Shown here: one piece after another, positions 2,688 to 52,954 of the stretch
How positions within the stretch are numbered: the first letter of the stretch is position 1
Layout: each line of letters begins with the position of its first letter
Sequence record: MF158045
DNA from: Shigella phage Sf22
Strand: one strand, 5' to 3'
DNA: 64,000 nt
Notes under the pieces: generated by a model
What the model was told of the DNA's origin: nothing
What the model saw: only the letters and a program-made list of their open reading frames with translations
Database searches by the model: none
Made by a program: the position numbers and the translations under genes

Positions 2688-5600
2688 ATGGCTACTTTAA
2701 AACAAATACAATTTAAAAGAAGCAAAACCGCAGGAGCACGTCCTGCTGCTTCAGTATTAGCCGAAGGTGAATTGGCTATAAACTTAAAAGATAGAACAAT
2801 TTTTACTAAAGATGATTCAGGAAATATCATTGATCTAGGTATTGCTAAAGGCGGTCAAATTGATGGAAATGTAACTATTGATGGAACTTTACGCGTCAAT
2901 GGACCAATAAACAACTTTGGAAATTTTTCTACAAGTGGTACTATTACGGCAAGTAATATTGTTTCTGCTACAGTATTCAGATCAACATCCGGTTCATTTT
3001 ATACAAGAGCAATAAATGATACTGCAAATGCCCATCTTTGGTTTGAAAATACGAATGGATCGGAGAGAGGGGTTTTATATTCAAAACCACAGTCTGAAAA
3101 TGAAGGCGTAATTACAATGCGCGTTCGCCAAGGAACCGCAGCAGGGGCTCAAAATTCAGAATTTCATTTCATTTCTACTGATGGCGGTATCTTCCAGGCA
3201 CGCAAATTAACTGCTTTAACTTCTATTAGTACACCAACTATTAGTGTTAATTTAATTAATCATGATTCTAAAGCCTTTGGACAATACGATTCACAATCAT
3301 TAGTTCAGTATGTTTATCCTGGAACCGGTGAAACAAATGGTGTAAACTATCTTCGTAAAGTTCGAGCTAAATCAGGTGGAACTATTTACCATGAAATTTG
3401 TACAGCTCAGACTGGGCTAGCTGATGAAGTTTCTTGGTGGACTGGTAATATACCGTTATTTAAACTATACGGTATTCGTAACGACGGTAGAATGATTATT
3501 CGCAATAGCTTGGCCATTGGTACTGTGACGGAAGGGTTTCCGTCAAGCGATTATGGAAATACTGGGGTAATGGGAGATAGGTATTTAGCTCTTGGCGATA
3601 ATGCTTCTGGACTTAAATGGGTTCGTACTGGCGTTATTGACTTAATGGCTAACGGTATTTCTGCGGCGTCTATTATTAATAATGGTATTAACAGTACTAA
3701 AAAATTAATGGTTGGTTATAGTCGAGATTCTGGTTCTACTTGGGATTTCCCAAATAACAACCAAGCAATGTTTACTGCGCGTACCGATGTTGATGGTAAT
3801 AATAACGGTGATGGTCAAACTCATATCGGTTATAGCAGTAATTCTAAAATGTATCACTATTTCCGTGGTACAGGTCGTATGTCCGTTAGTATGGGCGATG
3901 GACTTCTTGTTGAGCCTGGCATTTTAGATATTAAAACTGGTTCAAATTCATTAAATTTGCGTGCTGATGGTACTGTTGCATCTACTCAAGAAGTTAAGCT
4001 TAATAATGGGTTATTCTTTAATAGTAGTTCTTCTAACGCCGGTCTTAAATTTGGCGCTTCTTCTTCTATAAATGGAACTAAGACAATACAATGGAACGCA
4101 GGCACCCGCCCGGGTCAGAACAAAAGCTATGTGACCATGAAAGCATGGGGCAATGCATTTGAGGATAATACTAATAAAAACAGAGAAACTGTATTTGAAT
4201 TAGGCGATGGACAGGGTTGGCATTTTTATTCACAGCGCGTTGCTCCTGCAGCAGGTTCTACTGCCGGTTCTGTTGAATTTGCGATGGCCGGTAGTTTATT
4301 AACTTCTGGTTCTATTACAACAAGATCTTCCCTGAATGCTGATAATGGATTGTCTGTAAATGGACAAGCTAAATTTGGTGGAACGGCTGATGTATTAAGA
4401 ATTTGGAATGCTGAATACGGTGCTATTTTCCGTCGCTCAGAAAGTAATCTTTATATTATACCGACTCCTAAAGATGCTGGAGAATCGGGCGGTATAAGTA
4501 ATCTTAGACCATTGATAATAGAACTGAACACTGGCACAGTTAAAATGTCGCATGATGTTCATTTAGGAGATTCTGGATCTGGTACAGGACTTTTACAAGT
4601 AAGTAATAGTCTTAAAACTATTAAAATGATATGTCCAGTAACTATTAATGAACGCAATGCAGCGCTTACCCTGGATTCTCCTTCATCTTCTTCTGCTAAT
4701 TATTTACAGGGTTCTAAAGCTGGAACTAGATCATGGTACGTTGGTCTTGGCGGCGCTGGAAATGATTTATCTCTTTATAGCCAATCTTATGGACATGGTC
4801 TTGTTATAAGTGATAATTTCACGTCAATCACTAAGCCTCTTAAAGTCGGCAATGCCCAATTAGGAACTGACGGTAATATTACCAATGGTTCAGGAAACTT
4901 TGTCAACTTAAATACCACGTTAAATCGTAAAGTTAATTCTGGATTTATTACTTATGGAGCAACCTCTGGATGGTATAAGTTTGCAACAGTAACAATGCCA
5001 CAATCCACTTCGACGGTCTTCTTTAAAATAGTTGGAGGTTCTGGATTTAATAGCGGATTATTCACACAATGTAATATTGCTGAAATTGTTTTACGTACTA
5101 GTAATGAAAGACCTTCTGACTTAAATGCTGTATTATACACAAGAACAACTGGAATGTATAGCGCAGCATTTAGAAATATTGCAGTTAACAATGTCTCTGG
5201 AAATACATATGACATTTATGTTTATGCTGGAACATATTGTAATCAACTAGTTTGTGAATGGTCATGTACCGAAAATGCTACTGTTAGCGTTATTGGTATT
5301 AACTCATCTACCCAATCACCTGTGGATGCTCTTCCAGATACAGCAGTTGATGGGCAAGTTGCTAATGTTCTTAATAACTTGGTTGATCGTGGTAAAGTTA
5401 AGCGTTATGAAGCCGATTCTGAAATAGCTATTAATAGCCAAACCGGTATTCGTATCAGAAGCAATGCCGATAAAACTGGTTCTGTGGCTACAATGTTACG
5501 AAATGACGGTGGCAGTTTTTATATTCTGTTTACAGATAAAAATGCCACTGATGGCGCAGCAACTGTTAATGGTGATTGGAATAGTAAACGTCCTTTCGCA

Positions 5601-6407: not shown

Positions 6408-7202
6408 ATGGCAATTGTAGGTGTTCCTGGCTGGATTGGTGAATCTGCCGTGAATGAAACTGGACAGCGTTGGATGGATGCTGCGATGAGAGCAGTTCGT
6501 GTTTCAGTTCCTGGTTGGATGAGCTCAATGGCTGGGCAATCTAAAGAAGTATATTATAGCATTGGTGCTAGCAATTCTTACAATAAAGACACACTAATAA
6601 ATTATCTCAAATCTCAAGGTAGTACTCCTGTTGTTGTTACTATTACTGGTAACCTAGTTTCTTCATCTGCAAGGCAACCTTGCTTAGATTTTCCTAGCTC
6701 ATTAACTAATGCTTATGTAACGCTTATTATAAATGGCGGTGTAACAGTATATGGTCGCGGAGGACGCGGCGCGCAAGCGGGAAACCAGGCGGGTGAAGCT
6801 GGTGGTACTGCAATTAACAATGGTATAGGTACTCGTCTACGAATCACTAACAATGGAGCAATCGCTGGCGGTGGTGGTGGTGGCGGCGCCCAATCAACTG
6901 ATAATGGATGGGGAGGTAAATATGTTTCTGGCGGCGGCGGCGGACGTCCTTTCGGAGCTGGTGGTAATAATGGAGCAAAAGCTCCGGGTGCATCAGCATC
7001 TTTAACATCTCCAGGCGCAGGTGGAAAAATGTATTCCGGCGTTGGATACTACGGTGGTGACGGTGGTAATGTTGGTGAACGAGGTAAGGATGCGGTTAGA
7101 TTGAACGGCTATTCGAACTCACCTGGCGCAGCAGGTAAAGCTGTTACTGGTAACGCACCAACATGGACTAAGGTTGGTACAATATATGGTTCAAGAGTAT
7201 AA
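6408..7202 (+). CDS. 38: Receptor-recognising tail fiber adhesin gp38 (T2-type, glycine-rich motifs)
   Basis: 264 aa with several poly-Gly blocks (GGGGGGGAQ, GGGGG) separated by variable segments; immediately downstream of gp37. Confidence 0.85.
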   Translation: MAIVGVPGWIGESAVNETGQRWMDAAMRAVRVSVPGWMSSMAGQSKEVYYSIGASNSYNKDTLINYLKSQGSTPVVVTITGNLVSSSARQPCLDFPSSLTNAYVTLIINGGVTVYGRGGRGAQAGNQAGEAGGTAINNGIGTRLRITNNGAIAGGGGGGGAQSTDNGWGGKYVSGGGGGRPFGAGGNNGAKAPGASASLTSPGAGGKMYSGVGYYGGDGGNVGERGKDAVRLNGYSNSPGAAGKAVTGNAPTWTKVGTIYGSRV

Positions 7203-7208
7203 TTTTTG

Positions 7209-7216
7209 AATAAATA
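7209..7216 (+). promoter_or_regulatory. Possible late-promoter-like box (AATAAATA) upstream of t
   Basis: One mismatch to TATAAATA, about 19 nt before the t ATG. Confidence 0.3.
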
Positions 7217-7234
7217 TCCTTAAAAGGAGGGTCT

Positions 7235-7891
7235 ATGGCAGCACCTAGAATATCATTTTCGCCCTCTGATATTCTATTTGGTGTTCTAGATCGCTTGTTC
7301 AAAGATAACGCTACCGGGAAAGTTCTTGCTTCCCGGGTAGCTGTCGTAATTCTTTTATTTATGATGGCGATTGTTTGGTATAGGGGAGATAGTTTCTTTG
7401 AGTACTATAAGCAATCAAAGTATGAAACATACAGTGAAATTATTGAAAAGGAAAGAAATGCACGCTTTGAATCTGTCGCCCTGGAACAACTCCAGATAGT
7501 TCATATATCATCTGAGGCAGACTTTAGTGCGGTGTATTCTTTCCGCCCTAAAAACTTAAACTATTTTGTTGATATTATAGCATACGAAGGAAGATTACCT
7601 TCAACAATAACTGAAAAATCACTTGGAGGATATCCTGTTGATAAAACTATGGATGAATATACAGTTCATTTAAATGGACGTCATTATTATTCTGACTCAA
7701 AATTTGCTTTTTTACCAACTAAAAAGCCTACTCCCGAAATAAACTACATGTACAGTTGTCCATATTTTAATTTGGATAATATCTATGCTGGAACGATAAC
7801 AATGTACTGGTATAGAAATGATCATATAAGTAATGACCGCCTTGAATCAATATGTGCCCAGGCGGCCAGAATATTAGGAAGGGCTAAATAA
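7235..7891 (+). CDS. t: Holin T (lysis, lysis-inhibition sensor)
   Basis: 218 aa; N-terminus MAAPRISFSPSDILFGVLDRLFKDNATGKV and one N-proximal TMD match T4 holin as I recall it; strong SD AAGGAGG. Confidence 0.95.
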   Translation: MAAPRISFSPSDILFGVLDRLFKDNATGKVLASRVAVVILLFMMAIVWYRGDSFFEYYKQSKYETYSEIIEKERNARFESVALEQLQIVHISSEADFSAVYSFRPKNLNYFVDIIAYEGRLPSTITEKSLGGYPVDKTMDEYTVHLNGRHYYSDSKFAFLPTKKPTPEINYMYSCPYFNLDNIYAGTITMYWYRNDHISNDRLESICAQAARILGRAK

Positions 7892-8164
7892 TTATTTGTT
7901 CGTATACATCTCTAGATATCGATATACACCCTCAAAACCCTCGTTGAATTCGTCGATGAGGGTTTTCTTATCTTCTTGAGTTAATTCAGAAACAATTTTA
8001 CGGAATGAATTCTGATTTAATTTTCTACCTTCATGCGTTACTCCAATCTCATTCAGAAATGCAATAAAATTAGCACGATTCTCAACAATATCTTCTCTGG
8101 AAAATTTAATCAAAATAGACGCAACAGTAATAATTTCACGAACTGTATCAATGTTTTTATTCAT
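7892..8164 (-). CDS. asiA: Anti-sigma70 factor AsiA
   Basis: 90 aa, MNKNIDTVREIITVASILIKFSREDIVENRANFIAF matches T4 AsiA as recalled. Confidence 0.95.
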   Translation of the reverse strand: MNKNIDTVREIITVASILIKFSREDIVENRANFIAFLNEIGVTHEGRKLNQNSFRKIVSELTQEDKKTLIDEFNEGFEGVYRYLEMYTNK

Positions 8165-32037: not shown

Positions 32038-32228
32038 TTTGAATGCTCTATAATTAATTTTAAAGCTTCTTCACTGACAAAAATTTCGTCAGGACCTTCT
32101 ATAACTTCAACCATACGAAGTTGATTAGTTAAGAGCTCACATACGAGCTCCTTGTTATAATCTTTAAATAGCTGGTCAATACGTTTCTTGTGGGCTTTCT
32201 TAAGCTGGCGTTTATTTAAACGAGCCAT
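32034..32228 (-). CDS. Hypothetical protein (64 aa)
   Basis: ORF track; stop/start overlaps on both sides. Confidence 0.45.
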   Translation of the reverse strand: MARLNKRQLKKAHKKRIDQLFKDYNKELVCELLTNQLRMVEVIEGPDEIFVSEEALKLIIEHSK

Positions 32229-32746
32229 TAATAACCTCGGTCTTGACGAGCGAAGTTTTCAGCATTTTTCAGATAATAAAGTTTAAAGATTTCTTCAGCC
32301 GTAAGACCGAGACCTTGGAACATGTTCAGAACGAAATGAAGAATATCAATCATTTCGAATTTAATTTCCAACTGGTCTTGTGGAGACAAATCAGTAATTA
32401 AAGTTTCACGACGTTCACCATGTTGAGCTTTCCAAGGCTTCCATACAGCAGATGCATCTTTTTCGCCATTGCTCATACCACCAAGAGAAGTCAATAGTTC
32501 GCGGAATTCATCATCAATATAATCTTTCTGATTACGCAGCCAATCAACAACTTCACCCGCAGTAGCCAAATCATCAGGATGACGGTTATATTCAGGTTTA
32601 TCTTTAGCTAAACGAACCTGAAGAGATTTCTGCATATCAAGCATAACTTGCAGCGGGTCTTTTTCATCACCGAGAATATCCCAGTATTCATTTTGAGCTT
32701 TATCAGCGCCTTCAATCAGTTGTGAACATTCATTAAAGTATGCCAT
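32228..32746 (-). CDS. 56: dCTP pyrophosphatase gp56 (MazG-like)
   Basis: Internal start MAYFNECSQLIEG gives 172 aa (T4 gp56 171 aa); the ORF-track 5-prime extension is unlikely. Confidence 0.8.
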   Translation of the reverse strand: MAYFNECSQLIEGADKAQNEYWDILGDEKDPLQVMLDMQKSLQVRLAKDKPEYNRHPDDLATAGEVVDWLRNQKDYIDDEFRELLTSLGGMSNGEKDASAVWKPWKAQHGERRETLITDLSPQDQLEIKFEMIDILHFVLNMFQGLGLTAEEIFKLYYLKNAENFARQDRGY

Positions 32747-32817
32747 TATTTTTCCTTTCAATTCATGGGTTAGTAGATTAATTATACAATAAATATATAA
32801 AGCAATAAGGAGGACAT

Positions 32818-33018
32818 ATGGTACAAAAATTAATGGCACTTGTTAATGCCATAAAAGGTAATAAAAAACGTATAGCTTTTACTATTTCTGCTATGGTAGG
32901 AATTTTACTCTGGAACTTTATTCTATCACCTGTTGCAATTGCGCATGGTATTAATATTCCAGTAGTTACTCTTGATACATTTGTAGATTTAGCATTTGCT
33001 TTAGTTGGGTTGATTTAA
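32818..33018 (+). CDS. Small membrane protein (66 aa) on plus strand
   Basis: Strong SD AAGGAGG 6 nt before ATG; two predicted hydrophobic helices; only plus-strand ORF with a good RBS in the early region. Confidence 0.5.
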   Translation: MVQKLMALVNAIKGNKKRIAFTISAMVGILLWNFILSPVAIAHGINIPVVTLDTFVDLAFALVGLI

Positions 33019-37486: not shown

Positions 37487-37849
37487 TTAAAAGAATTTAA
37501 ACTTTTTCTTTGACCTTTTATTAAATGCATCTTGTAGTTGCATTGTAATACATTTTTCTACATGAGGAGCTAACTCAGCTTTTCTTTCTTGGTCAAGAAC
37601 AGCAAAGTCCATTACAACCTTTCCATCAACCCAATCCAGTTTAGTTACATACACTATATGTGTAGAACCATCTTCTAGTTTAATGACAATCTCCTGGATA
37701 ACATTTTCCATGGCAGATTTAATTATCTTAAGAGATTCATTAAAAAGACGTTCTTTTCTTTCTTCTTCCCCCTCCGAAGAGGGGGATTCATCGATAATTT
37801 CTAGATCTAAATCTAAATCATCTTTATTCATTAAATTCTTCCATATCAC
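37487..37849 (-). CDS. 40: gp40-like protein (head vertex assembly chaperone) by position
   Basis: 120 aa between 41 and uvsX. Confidence 0.6.
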   Translation of the reverse strand: MIWKNLMNKDDLDLDLEIIDESPSSEGEEERKERLFNESLKIIKSAMENVIQEIVIKLEDGSTHIVYVTKLDWVDGKVVMDFAVLDQERKAELAPHVEKCITMQLQDAFNKRSKKKFKFF

Positions 37850-39005
37850 TTAACTGCTCGAGGTCAGTTTCTAAATCAGCTGCTGATTTACTTTTACTTT
37901 CTGGAGATTTAAATTTTTCAACCTTTGAGTTAATCAATTCATCAACTTCCGCTTCAACAATTTCATTACTATCAATAGCACCTAACTGATAAGCACGCTT
38001 AATAGCATCTCGGAATGGTTGATGCTTAAATAAAGGACCCCAGAATGTAGTGCAGTTAGTATCTTTTGCACGCCAAGATTTTTCTTCGCGAATCATCTCG
38101 CCAGTTTCTTCGTCAAGAAATTCACGCGCATACCAACCATTTTTAGGTTTTACTACAAATCCTAATTCTAGAGCCATATCTAACAATCCAGAATAAGGAT
38201 CGATACCACCGTCAAATTTAACATCAATAAAGAATTTACTTTTTTCTTTAACGGTACGAGATTTTTCTACATTTAGAACAAATTGATACCCCTGAAGATC
38301 AGAACCATCTTTAATCTGACGCTTACCGATAATGAATACAGTATCAGCCGAATACATTACGCCTGTACCACCTGTCATCACGGTTTTACTAAACATTTCA
38401 ATTGTTTCAATTGTATGGTTAACCGCAACACATGGAATATTTTTAATGCTAAAATAAGGAGTAACAATACGGAATAATGACTTCAGTGATTTAGCACGAG
38501 TCATATCTGCCACAGATTTTTCATTCAAGGCATCTTCAGTTTCTTTCTTAGAAGCCATATTACCGATTGAGTCGATGAATACAATAACTTTTTCACCGCG
38601 CTCAATAGCTTCAAGCTGATTCACCATATCAATTTTCAGCTGTTCAACTGACTGGATTGGCGTATGAATTACTCGTTCCGGGTCAACTCCCATGGATCGC
38701 AAATAAGCTGGAGTAATACCAAATTCGCTATCATAGAATAGACAAACCGCGTCAGGATATTTGTTCAAATACGCCGCAACCATAGTCAAAGACATATTTG
38801 ATTTAAAGTGTTTAGAAGGACCTGCAAAAATAGTTAAACCAGACTGCATGCCGCCATCAATCGCACCAGAAATAGCAATATTAAGCATTGGGATTTTTGT
38901 ACGGATTACATCCTTTTCATTAAAGAATTTAGATGTAGTCAGTTCAGCAGTCATTTTAGAAGTGGAAGCTTTAATCAAACGGGATTTTAAATCTGCAATA
39001 GACAT
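37824..39005 (-). CDS. uvsX: Recombinase UvsX (RecA-like)
   Basis: 393 aa; RecA-fold nucleotide-binding loop (GPSKHFKS); synteny. Confidence 0.95.
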   Translation of the reverse strand: MSIADLKSRLIKASTSKMTAELTTSKFFNEKDVIRTKIPMLNIAISGAIDGGMQSGLTIFAGPSKHFKSNMSLTMVAAYLNKYPDAVCLFYDSEFGITPAYLRSMGVDPERVIHTPIQSVEQLKIDMVNQLEAIERGEKVIVFIDSIGNMASKKETEDALNEKSVADMTRAKSLKSLFRIVTPYFSIKNIPCVAVNHTIETIEMFSKTVMTGGTGVMYSADTVFIIGKRQIKDGSDLQGYQFVLNVEKSRTVKEKSKFFIDVKFDGGIDPYSGLLDMALELGFVVKPKNGWYAREFLDEETGEMIREEKSWRAKDTNCTTFWGPLFKHQPFRDAIKRAYQLGAIDSNEIVEAEVDELINSKVEKFKSPESKSKSAADLETDLEQLSDMEEFNE

Positions 39006-39082
39006 TCATTTTTTCCATAGGCATCATTATATTTTCCTCACTGGTTAAAGATAGAGTAATTATAACACAATAAATTTAGGCA

Positions 39083-39931
39083 TTAATCAACTGCTATTGG
39101 ATGAATAGCATTAAACTTATGAAATGCTTCTGATTTTTCTTTACGCGAAACACACATGCGAAGAACCTTTAATGGCTCGTCTTCTTCACCCAACGATTTT
39201 CGTTTTTCAATATTAGAAGTTTTCCAACGAGCTTGCTCTGGAAACTCTCTATTGATTTGCTCAAGCGCTCTATTATGTTTAGAATTACTACGAATTGAAC
39301 TGCACCCGCCAGGAGCTTGTGCTTTTCCAGATACAACCAGATATTTGAACAAGGCCAAATGCGGATAACCTTGATTAATTAAATTGAGAAATGCATACAT
39401 ATCTTCGCACAAATCAATTTTTCCATACCCAATTTGTTCTGTCGTAAGTTTTCCGAGGTCATACCATGTATTCGTGAATCCATATGAATTTTCACGATAA
39501 TTACCCCAAGATGAAGTAATTTTAAAAATAGGTAGACGAGCATGGCCATGATAATACCCACAATCCATGGCATCCTCAACATATTGAATCAATTCATAGA
39601 ACTGTTCACGGGTTAATTGATTGACTTTATCTACACAACGACGGTCATCTCTTTTTCGCATTGAACTCATACGAATAGTAGTATCATCGTCAATCATCCA
39701 GATTCGTTGACCTGTATACATATCAGTAATTGCTTTACGAGTACCGGCAATTCCGTTTACATCATCAGGAATAGTTATAATTTTAGCTCTAGACCCATAA
39801 GCGTCATGATAAGCTTTTTCTTCATGTTCACGCACTACAATATGGGGTTCATAATCAGTCGGAAACATATTAAGGGCAGAAACTGCCCCTACACGCTGAT
39901 AACTTGGAATTACGAATTGAATCATTTCCAC
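39083..39931 (-). CDS. Putative glycosyltransferase at the beta-gt locus (candidate beta-glucosyl-HMC alpha-glucosyltransferase of T2/T6 type)
   Basis: 282 aa; DxD-like motif IWMIDDDTTI; occupies the uvsX-42 interval but does not resemble T4 beta-gt (351 aa). Confidence 0.5.
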   Translation of the reverse strand: MEMIQFVIPSYQRVGAVSALNMFPTDYEPHIVVREHEEKAYHDAYGSRAKIITIPDDVNGIAGTRKAITDMYTGQRIWMIDDDTTIRMSSMRKRDDRRCVDKVNQLTREQFYELIQYVEDAMDCGYYHGHARLPIFKITSSWGNYRENSYGFTNTWYDLGKLTTEQIGYGKIDLCEDMYAFLNLINQGYPHLALFKYLVVSGKAQAPGGCSSIRSNSKHNRALEQINREFPEQARWKTSNIEKRKSLGEEDEPLKVLRMCVSRKEKSEAFHKFNAIHPIAVD

Positions 39932-40662
39932 TCACCGTTATAATCTTTTTTCACAATATGAGTTTCGCCAGTATTCCACCAATGATCAACCAAGTAAAAA
40001 TGACGAGAATATACATGAAGACTTCCAACATTCCATATAATAGAACCCGCTTTATACTGACGAGTTGAATCGCCTGCATTCAAATCAGATACTAATTTAT
40101 CTAATACGTATTTTTGCCATGCATAATCATTACGGAATCCGAAGACCACGTCATTTGAGCGCATGCTTACTACTGCATTGACTTTCTTATCACGAATCAG
40201 GTACTGTACTGTATTAGTACACATGAAATCTGACATACCATCTTTATTGTAGTCAAATTGCATGGATGGACGAGTATAAATCATGATACCACGTCGAGAA
40301 TCAGGATTTTGACCAAGTTCAGCTAAACACATATCATACTGGGCATAGTTATCTTCTGACCAAATAGCCCAACCATAGTTCGAGTTAATTTCGCCTTTAG
40401 AAGATGCTACTTGTTGCCAAATCTTCGGTGTTTCACCTGGAATATCTTTAACAAACAAGCTCTTAGATTTATACCATTCAAGTTCACGCTGAATGTATTC
40501 ATCATTAAGAGCGCCAAAAATAAAGGGTTCATCTGCTACAAATGATGCGCCAATAATTTCAATAGTTTTAACGCCAGTTTTATCAACTACGAAATCTTTT
40601 TCTTTTAATGCAAGCCCCAAATGAAGACGGATTTCTTCAACTGTCATAGAGTCACTAATCAT
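39922..40662 (-). CDS. 42: dCMP hydroxymethylase gp42
   Basis: 246 aa (T4 gp42 246 aa); synteny. Confidence 0.9.
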   Translation of the reverse strand: MISDSMTVEEIRLHLGLALKEKDFVVDKTGVKTIEIIGASFVADEPFIFGALNDEYIQRELEWYKSKSLFVKDIPGETPKIWQQVASSKGEINSNYGWAIWSEDNYAQYDMCLAELGQNPDSRRGIMIYTRPSMQFDYNKDGMSDFMCTNTVQYLIRDKKVNAVVSMRSNDVVFGFRNDYAWQKYVLDKLVSDLNAGDSTRQYKAGSIIWNVGSLHVYSRHFYLVDHWWNTGETHIVKKDYNGEWK

Positions 40663-41757: not shown

Positions 41758-41844
41758 AGTTTTGTGAAAATTTTTTAGGGAATTCTAAAGGTCCAGAATC
41801 ATCTGTTTTTCATAAGTATAGATTTATATTACTTGTATGAAAAA

Positions 41845-41860
41845 GGGACCCGGAGGTCCC
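41845..41860 (-). terminator. Hairpin downstream of gene 43
   Basis: GGGACC-tccg-GGTCCC (minus-strand reading). Confidence 0.45.
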
Positions 41861-41873
41861 CAGATTTATTCTA

Positions 41874-51287: not shown

Positions 51288-51303
51288 AGGGCCGAAGCCC
51301 TTT
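51288..51303 (-). terminator. UUCG-loop hairpin at 3-prime end of a-gt
   Basis: AAGGGC-TTCG-GCCCTT overlapping the a-gt stop codon. Confidence 0.45.
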
Positions 51304-52504
51304 ATTTTGTAATAATGTCAAACTGTTCTTTAAAGCAGAAGCTTGAATCTTGATGCTGATACAAAAATTCATATGCTTTTTCTCGCTCACGGTCATAAAG
51401 AGCTCGGTCAGATGACAGTTCTTTAATACGCTCGAATGTTGATTCCATATCATTTTCATCAAACCAAACGATACCGCTATCATGCGAAATTAGCGGAGTA
51501 TTATCAACACGGAATTTTAAATTTTCGCCAGTAGATTTCCAAAATACCGGAATTGTTCCACATGCACCAAGCTCGAGATGAGTATATTCTAAAGAGCGCT
51601 GTAGATATTTTTTATCCAACTTACTCAGCTGATAACCAAAACCGGATTTACTCATACGTTCAAGCATTTCGCTATTTACATAACGGTCAAGAATTTGCGT
51701 TGGCAAATTAGGAGCAATTTTAATTTGGTCTACTTGATGAAGACGATAATACTCGTATGGAATTCCTTTTTCTTTAATAGGAATGAACGCTGGAGAACGT
51801 TCCAGACCTTCCATAATAGTACTTAGTCCTGCAGGTTTAAGATGTTTTTCATGAAAATCAAACATCTGATAAAAACCTTTCCATGTAGTCGTACGACCAA
51901 TCCAACGGTTGATATTCATGTTAATTTCAGAAACATCTTTCCAGTAAGTTGACCGAACCTTCGCAATATCCATAGGAGGCTGAAAGTTATATACTGTCGG
52001 TGCTTCTTCAATATCATCAAACAGAGAAACAGTTTCTGGATACCATTCTTTCATCAGAACTTTATTAAAATCACCATTATCAGAATGGCTAAAAATAACA
52101 TCAGCTCGACGAACAGTTTCTTCTAATCCCAAATTTCGACGCAAAGAAAGAGAAGAATGGTCATGCTGATAAACTACAACACGAACCGAAGGTTTAATGT
52201 TATCAATAATTTTTTTATAGTTATTAATAGTGTCTTCTTCAACCGAAGTAGCAGGAACTGAATTGATAATTAGAATATCACAATCATTTACCAGCTTAAG
52301 TGTTTTATCATATTCTTTTGCCAATAAAACCGGAATTGAAAATGATTTATAATCATGCGCGCAATTACGAGTAAATGATTTATCTTTAGCATAAACCAAA
52401 GTCACTTCATGACCATTTTTAATAAACCAATCACGTTGCTCGAGTGAGAATTTTGTTACACCACAACCTTCAAGACCTCGAGCCATAAAAATACATACTT
52501 TCAT
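51302..52504 (-). CDS. a-gt: Alpha-glucosyltransferase (HMC-DNA alpha-glucosylation)
   Basis: 400 aa; N-terminus CIFMARGLEGCGVTKFSLEQRDWFIKNGHEV matches T4 AGT as recalled. Confidence 0.9.
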   Translation of the reverse strand: MKVCIFMARGLEGCGVTKFSLEQRDWFIKNGHEVTLVYAKDKSFTRNCAHDYKSFSIPVLLAKEYDKTLKLVNDCDILIINSVPATSVEEDTINNYKKIIDNIKPSVRVVVYQHDHSSLSLRRNLGLEETVRRADVIFSHSDNGDFNKVLMKEWYPETVSLFDDIEEAPTVYNFQPPMDIAKVRSTYWKDVSEINMNINRWIGRTTTWKGFYQMFDFHEKHLKPAGLSTIMEGLERSPAFIPIKEKGIPYEYYRLHQVDQIKIAPNLPTQILDRYVNSEMLERMSKSGFGYQLSKLDKKYLQRSLEYTHLELGACGTIPVFWKSTGENLKFRVDNTPLISHDSGIVWFDENDMESTFERIKELSSDRALYDREREKAYEFLYQHQDSSFCFKEQFDIITK

Positions 52505-52528
52505 TTAATATCCTCTTTGTTTTGGTTT

Positions 52529-52552
52529 ATTTTACCAAAAATTTATAAAGCA
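52529..52552 (-). promoter_or_regulatory. MotA-dependent middle promoter upstream of a-gt
   Basis: Minus strand TTGCTTTA, 11 nt, TAAAAT. Confidence 0.55.
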
Positions 52553-52557
52553 ATATA

Positions 52558-52571
52558 GGAGCCGAAGCTCC
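52558..52571 (-). terminator. UUCG-loop hairpin upstream of a-gt middle promoter
   Basis: GGAGC-TTCG-GCTCC (minus-strand reading). Confidence 0.4.
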
Positions 52572-52747
52572 TATCCGCATAATACGCCATACAGAGGCTC
52601 GTTAGAACTTTTAAATTTTATGCGCTTATATTTTATAGTTCCTTCTGCTTTAGCTTTATCATGAGACTCTTTAAAGCGTCTCATCATTTCCTCTTTAGAG
52701 GAACGAATTTTATTATAATCTATTTCAGAAGTCTGGGTGTTCATCTT

Positions 52748-52954
52748 TCATAGTTGCCACCATTTTTTGACTTGATAGGAATCAACCCACACTTTCATAT
52801 TAGGGTCTGCTCTTACAATAGGAGGATTAACTTCTTTAATTGAACTATCATGGTATTCTTTTTCAGAAATTTTCACACAAAGATGACCATTCAAAGATTC
52901 AGTAAATCCTGCATTAATTTTAAGACGCTTGAATTTTACGTGTGTAAGCATCAA
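52748..52954 (-). CDS. Hypothetical protein (68 aa)
   Basis: ORF track. Confidence 0.45.
   Translation of the reverse strand: MMLTHVKFKRLKINAGFTESLNGHLCVKISEKEYHDSSIKEVNPPIVRADPNMKVWVDSYQVKKWWQL

Follow-up and report, generated by a model that had tools for sequence, protein, structure and literature searches.

Organization of the locus

The ORF listing of the 64-kb window (the whole stretch of Shigella phage Sf22 DNA analysed here) contains an uninterrupted minus-strand ORF at 39083..39931 that encodes 282 aa from a GTG codon. Two codons inside GTG 39931, an ATG at 39925 (minus) shares bases with the TGA that ends gene 42 (ATGA). A Shine-Dalgarno-like GGTGAG, read off the sequence at 39931..39936 (minus), lies 5' of this ATG at five-base spacing, within the end of gene 42. 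The product from ATG 39925 has 280 aa, the annotated length in T2, Solly, BGP, and RB14. Because of the ATGA overlap, the GGTGAG spacing, and these shared lengths, we took the gene as 39083..39925 (minus) with ATG 39925 as the likely start, and on the basis of ORF, start context, and homology we annotate it as a beta-glucosyl-HMC-alpha-glucosyltransferase gene, ba-gt (also ggt or TAGT). An earlier note had described a 282-aa ORF with the motif IWMIDDDTTI in the uvsX-42 interval. The ORF, its place, and the motif (residues 75-84 in 280-aa numbering) were as described, but translation probably begins at ATG 39925. The ATGA overlap also suggests that translation of ba-gt is coupled to that of gene 42.

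A chance ORF was ruled out by the occurrence of DNA copies with ≥90% identity in 473 phage records. The reading frame has no stop or frameshift and keeps the family-invariant residues described below. The G+C content of ~35–37% is ordinary for the region, and the 24 kb around ba-gt is ~97% identical to many Tequatrovirus genomes. A sigma-70 promoter scan around ba-gt returned 15 sites vs 12.7 expected, which is chance level; T4-type early and middle promoters are outside the model used by the tool.

The gene lies between gene 42 and uvsX in T2, T6, Solly, BGP, and RB14, as it does in the window. Gene 42 (39922..40662, minus) is predicted to encode the dCMP hydroxymethylase that makes hm-dCMP, based on an ORF with distant matches to the thymidylate synthase family that is annotated as such in matching records. 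The downstream neighbor is uvsX (ORF at 37824..39005, minus), and segA is missing between uvsX and ba-gt (39006-39082), unlike in T4. The alpha-glucosyltransferase gene, a-gt, whose product would make the alpha-glucosyl-hydroxymethylcytosine (alpha-glucosyl-hmC) acceptor, was found at 51302..52504 (minus; 91% identity to T4 a-gt over 400 aa by tblastn, hit at 51305-52504). This a-gt is 100% identical to that of Solly, 99% to that of T2, and 91% to that of T6. No ORF of at least 90 aa is present beside a-gt (52505-52919), where T4 has mobB. Gene 56, predicted to encode the dCTPase/dUTPase that keeps dCTP out of the pool, is at 32228..32746 (minus; 74% identity to T4 gp56 by tblastn, E 2e-84, hit at 32231-32746). 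The co-occurrence of a-gt, gene 42, and gene 56 in the window, which the earlier note had pointed out, is borne out by these three positions. The interval separating genes 56 and 61 (32747-33014) lacks dam and has only a 66-aa plus-strand dam.1-like ORF (32818-33018). T4-type b-gt is also absent from the 64-kb window, as a tblastn search with T4 b-gt gave a best E of 1.3.

Two hairpins were seen in this region. On the minus strand, GGGGACCTCCGGGTCCC at 41844-41865, with a TTTTT run behind it, forms a strong terminator-like hairpin a short way past the stop codon of gene 43 (41874); it is mirror-matched on the plus strand. A 9-bp G+C-rich hairpin, TAGGGGCAGTTTCTGCCCTTA, is at 39871-39891 (minus) within ba-gt codons 12-18, ~35 nt past the start codon. 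The terminator scan flagged the latter, which has a core conserved in both T2 and T6 and may act on the structure or processing of the mRNA.

Similarity and predicted fold of the ba-gt product

The ba-gt product matched PHROG 842 ("beta-glucosyl-HMC-alpha-glucosyltransferase") over the whole length of the protein with an E of 1e-88. It also matched Pfam PF20691 (TAGT, TET-associated glycosyltransferase) with 42.2 bits vs a gathering score of 27.5, and the match spans residues 5-209, corresponding to profile positions 2-205 of 205. In NCBIfam, a model was found for neither ba-gt, a-gt, nor gp56. Pairwise comparisons gave 98% identity to both T2 ba-gt (275/280) and the annotated T6 ggt protein (257/261), 99% to ba-gt of phage Solly, and 96% to ba-gt of BGP, EL, and Geo. 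By BLASTP, the protein resembles neither T4 b-gt (E 2.2) nor T4 a-gt (E 0.64). The product is most probably the T2/T6-type ba-gt (ggt, TAGT), a GT-A enzyme with a DxD motif that would add a second glucose to yield gentiobiosyl-hmC, and we put the probability of this reading at about 0.93. The earlier note had proposed, from the letters alone, that the protein is unlike T4 beta-gt and that it may be a T2/T6-type transferase for gentiobiosyl-HMC, and both proposals agree with the BLASTP, PHROG 842, and Pfam TAGT results.

Transfer of another sugar (arabinose or another hexose), or an acceptor other than DNA, is scarcely credible for this protein. DNA arabinosylation does occur in some T4-like phages (PMC6024577, PMC13390438), and distant TAGT homologues without a-gt or b-gt have unknown products (PMC13216743). 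However, the arabinosylating phages are Mosigvirus with unrelated transferases (PMC13390438), and 98–99% identity to gentiobiosyl-hmC enzymes makes a change of donor or acceptor very unlikely.

We examined residue conservation in a shallow alignment of 10 homologues obtained from a word-indexed protein search. The GT-A DxD-type motif is D79-D80-D81 (codons GAC GAT GAT at 39683..39691, minus), which is invariant in homologues down to 28–32% identity. Other columns that are invariant out to the most distant homologues (28–32%) are the N-terminal IPSY-R (R11), G58/I59/T62/R63, D175, and G206-G207-x-S209-x-x-R212. E174 is conserved except in the most distant homologue. The private substitutions of the window ba-gt (N19, H40, and T71) are in variable columns.

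The AlphaFold2 model of the window ba-gt had a mean pLDDT of 70 and a pTM of 0.70. Its N-terminal 120 residues were well defined, with the DDD at the end of strand 74-79. Confidence in the model is only moderate because the alignment was shallow. A sequence search of the PDB did not find a solved relative of ba-gt, so the fold evidence is the predicted model. From it we assign, with moderate confidence, a GT-A rather than a GT-B fold to the window ba-gt. Independently, a 2026 paper modelled the T6 TAGT as GT-A, sister to GT2, and described T4 a-gt and b-gt as GT-B (PMC13216743). The homology and fold search that the earlier note had suggested gave 98% identity to the T2/T6 enzymes, no similarity to T4 b-gt, and a predicted GT-A instead of GT-B fold.

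Predicted DNA modification and its extent

In the proposed pathway, gp42 and gp56 would force hydroxymethylcytosine into DNA, the alpha-glucosyltransferase would place an alpha-linked glucose on hmC, and ba-gt with UDP-glucose would add a second glucose, beta-1,6 on the first, to give gentiobiosyl-hmC, with the chemistry taken from the literature. Published work established that ba-gt adds the second, beta-1,6-linked glucose to alpha-glucosyl-hmC (PMC6024577, PMC11078745, PMC13216743), and a T6 ba-gt deletion mutant has alpha-glucosyl-hmC only, the second sugar being lost (PMC11078745). The window ba-gt is predicted to transfer glucose onto alpha-glucosyl-hmC DNA, with the product known for T6 and Solly-type phages. 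Because the product is beta and the donor is UDP-alpha-glucose, we infer an inverting mechanism, which suits a GT2-like GT-A enzyme. No beta-monoglucosyl-hmC would be made because T4-type b-gt is absent.

We also weighed whether ba-gt could functionally replace b-gt by adding a single beta-glucose straight onto the bare hmC left by a-gt. The gene occupies the b-gt slot between gene 42 and uvsX, and several database records call ba-gt "b-gt" or "glucosyl transferase". Such a replacement is nevertheless very improbable. There is no sequence similarity to T4 b-gt, and the fold is GT-A, not GT-B (PMC13216743). Phages with ba-gt lack beta-glucosyl-hmC and leave 25–33% of hmC bare (PMC13390438, PMC11078745), and in the T6 deletion mutant only the second sugar disappears while alpha-glucosyl-hmC stays (PMC11078745). 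We rejected the ORF as a b-gt analogue on fold, sequence, and published LC-MS. ba-gt is a positional, not functional, stand-in for T4 b-gt, as its glucose is the second one, added beta-1,6 onto alpha-glucosyl-hmC.

Gene content does not fix the extent of diglucosylation, as T2 and T6 both have ba-gt. T6 has ~72% gentiobiosyl-hmC, and its difference from T2 (~5%) has long been reported. In LC-MS of the Durham Collection, Solly, TB37, QOTSP, NR1, and others had ~1/3 5hmdC, ~2/3 gentiobiosyl, and no beta-glucosyl, and Solly and its relatives encode a-gt and TAGT (PMC13390438). BGP, EL, and Geo had a 1:2:2 ratio of 5hmdC/alpha-glucosyl/gentiobiosyl with a dam gene present (PMC13390438). The window, T6, and Solly lack dam, while T2 and BGP have it; that dam absence goes with the T6-like pattern is correlative, seen in a few phages, and is not itself a mechanism.

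We predict a T6/Solly-like pattern for the window phage, with ~2/3 gentiobiosyl-hmC, ~1/3 bare hmC, and little monoglucosyl, because its a-gt and ba-gt are 100% and 99% identical to those of Solly, R11 is intact, and dam is absent. The same enzyme with a T2-like outcome (~70% alpha-monoglucosyl-hmC and a few percent gentiobiosyl) is unlikely, even though T2 has ~5% gentiobiosyl with a 98% identical ba-gt and a 99% identical a-gt (PMC6024577, PMC11078745), and BGP, EL, and Geo are intermediate at 1:2:2 with a 96% identical ba-gt (PMC13390438). The window lacks both of the T2-private substitutions, R11H and P251S, the former at a family-invariant residue, as well as the dam that T2 and BGP have. 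Moreover, Solly, with an identical a-gt and a 99% identical ba-gt, measures ~2/3 gentiobiosyl (PMC13390438).

The a-gt allele was considered as the divider between T2-like and T6-like patterns and rejected because Solly combines the T6-like pattern with an a-gt allele of the T2 type. A tentative possibility is that the ba-gt allele largely sets how much gentiobiosyl-hmC T-even phages contain. R11H and P251S are private to, and common to, all T2 records, and R11 is otherwise invariant in the family. R11H (with P251S) could be a hypomorphic allele behind the ~5% in T2 vs ~72% in T6. The window keeps R11 and P251 in ba-gt and has an a-gt identical to that of Solly. If the allele effect is true, the window would belong to a high-gentiobiose phage; this would be an allele effect in a known enzyme and no new system.

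Distribution, defenses, and known systems

DNA at least 90% identical to ba-gt was found in ~473 phage records, many of them annotated as beta-glucosyl-HMC-alpha-glucosyltransferase. T4-type b-gt was found in 29 phage records, mostly T4 itself plus RB55 and RB59. Previous surveys reported a-gt with ba-gt in 12 of 14 T4-like "RB" phages (Thomas et al., PMC6024577), and both a-gt and b-gt in only 6 of 753 transferase-encoding phages (PMC13216743). These published counts and our 29 vs 473 records show that most Tequatrovirus phages pair a-gt with ba-gt and that T4 is atypical.

Database names at this locus were inconsistent. The b-gt genes of RB55 and RB59 are 100% identical to that of T4, yet they are labelled "beta-glucosyl-HMC-alpha-glucosyl-transferase". 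Several ba-gt genes are conversely labelled "b-gt", "putative beta-glucosyltransferase", and even "thymidylate synthase". Annotation transfer at the b-gt/ba-gt locus is unreliable.

For the window, the importance of ba-gt is in its annotation. The expected bases are hmC, alpha-glucosyl-hmC, and probably mostly gentiobiosyl-hmC, with no beta-glucosyl-hmC. An altered sensitivity to glucose-specific defenses, as the earlier note anticipated, is already established in print: T6 becomes more sensitive to the glycosylase Brig1 when ba-gt is deleted (PMC11078745), and BapA is unable to take glucose off gentiobiosyl-hmC (10.64898/2026.02.25.707755). The window phage is predicted to be partially protected from alpha-glucosyl-specific glycosylases such as Brig1 and to resist deglucosylation by BapA. 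GmrSD-type enzymes would still be effective, and ~1/4–1/3 of hmC would be bare and open to hmC-directed defenses. This defense behavior is established for T6 and close relatives, and the window adds no new biology to it.

Outside of phages, the cellular GT2-family GT-A glycosyltransferases share the fold class of ba-gt, with the DxD after the central strand, and phage TAGTs are sister to the GT2 family (PMC13216743). Members of the cellular family differ from the window ba-gt in having only 9–15% identity to it and in using lipid, polysaccharide, or protein acceptors, not a sugar on DNA. T4 b-gt shares with ba-gt the gene 42-uvsX interval, UDP-glucose, and a beta linkage on phage DNA (PMC13216743), but its sequence is unrelated, its fold is GT-B vs GT-A, and its acceptor is bare hmC vs alpha-glucosyl-hmC.

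T2 ba-gt (UniProt Q06717 as cited in PMC6024577; AP018813 22282-23124) is likewise 280 aa long, sits at this position, and overlaps gene 42 in the same way. It differs from the window ba-gt by R11H and P251S in T2 and by N19, H40, and T71 in the window. In the extracted loci, T2 ba-gt is at 7283-8125 (AP018813 locus) and 3286-4128 (MH751506 locus), and in these two genomes R11H and P251S are its only differences from RB14 and Solly. The exact first 60 nt of T2 ba-gt occur only in 7 T2 records and SV76, with >100 other phages one base off.

T6 ba-gt (MH550421 and AP018814; loci 7138-7980 and 3135-3974, respectively) is the genetically tested enzyme and has the same neighbors as the window ba-gt. 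It differs in having N40, G55, and H107, and the T6 a-gt is a different allele. The deposited T6 genomes carry two different ba-gt lesions, both missing from the window. In MH550421, codon 10 reads TAG (amber) instead of CAG, and the annotated 261-aa protein starts at Met20. In AP018814, the (GAT)3 run for DDD is one GAT short, which leaves 279 aa. The DDD codons of the window and T2 are GAC GAT GAT. These lesions may be laboratory stock drift or repeat slippage.

The TAGT and a-gt of Solly (OY720021) have the gene order of the window, and Solly also lacks dam; its ba-gt has three differences from that of the window, conservative or at variable sites, and the genomes are not identical overall. 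The sequence, genetics, fold, and product of the enzyme have all been described before, and both the T6 deletion mutant and LC-MS of near-identical phages have been published.
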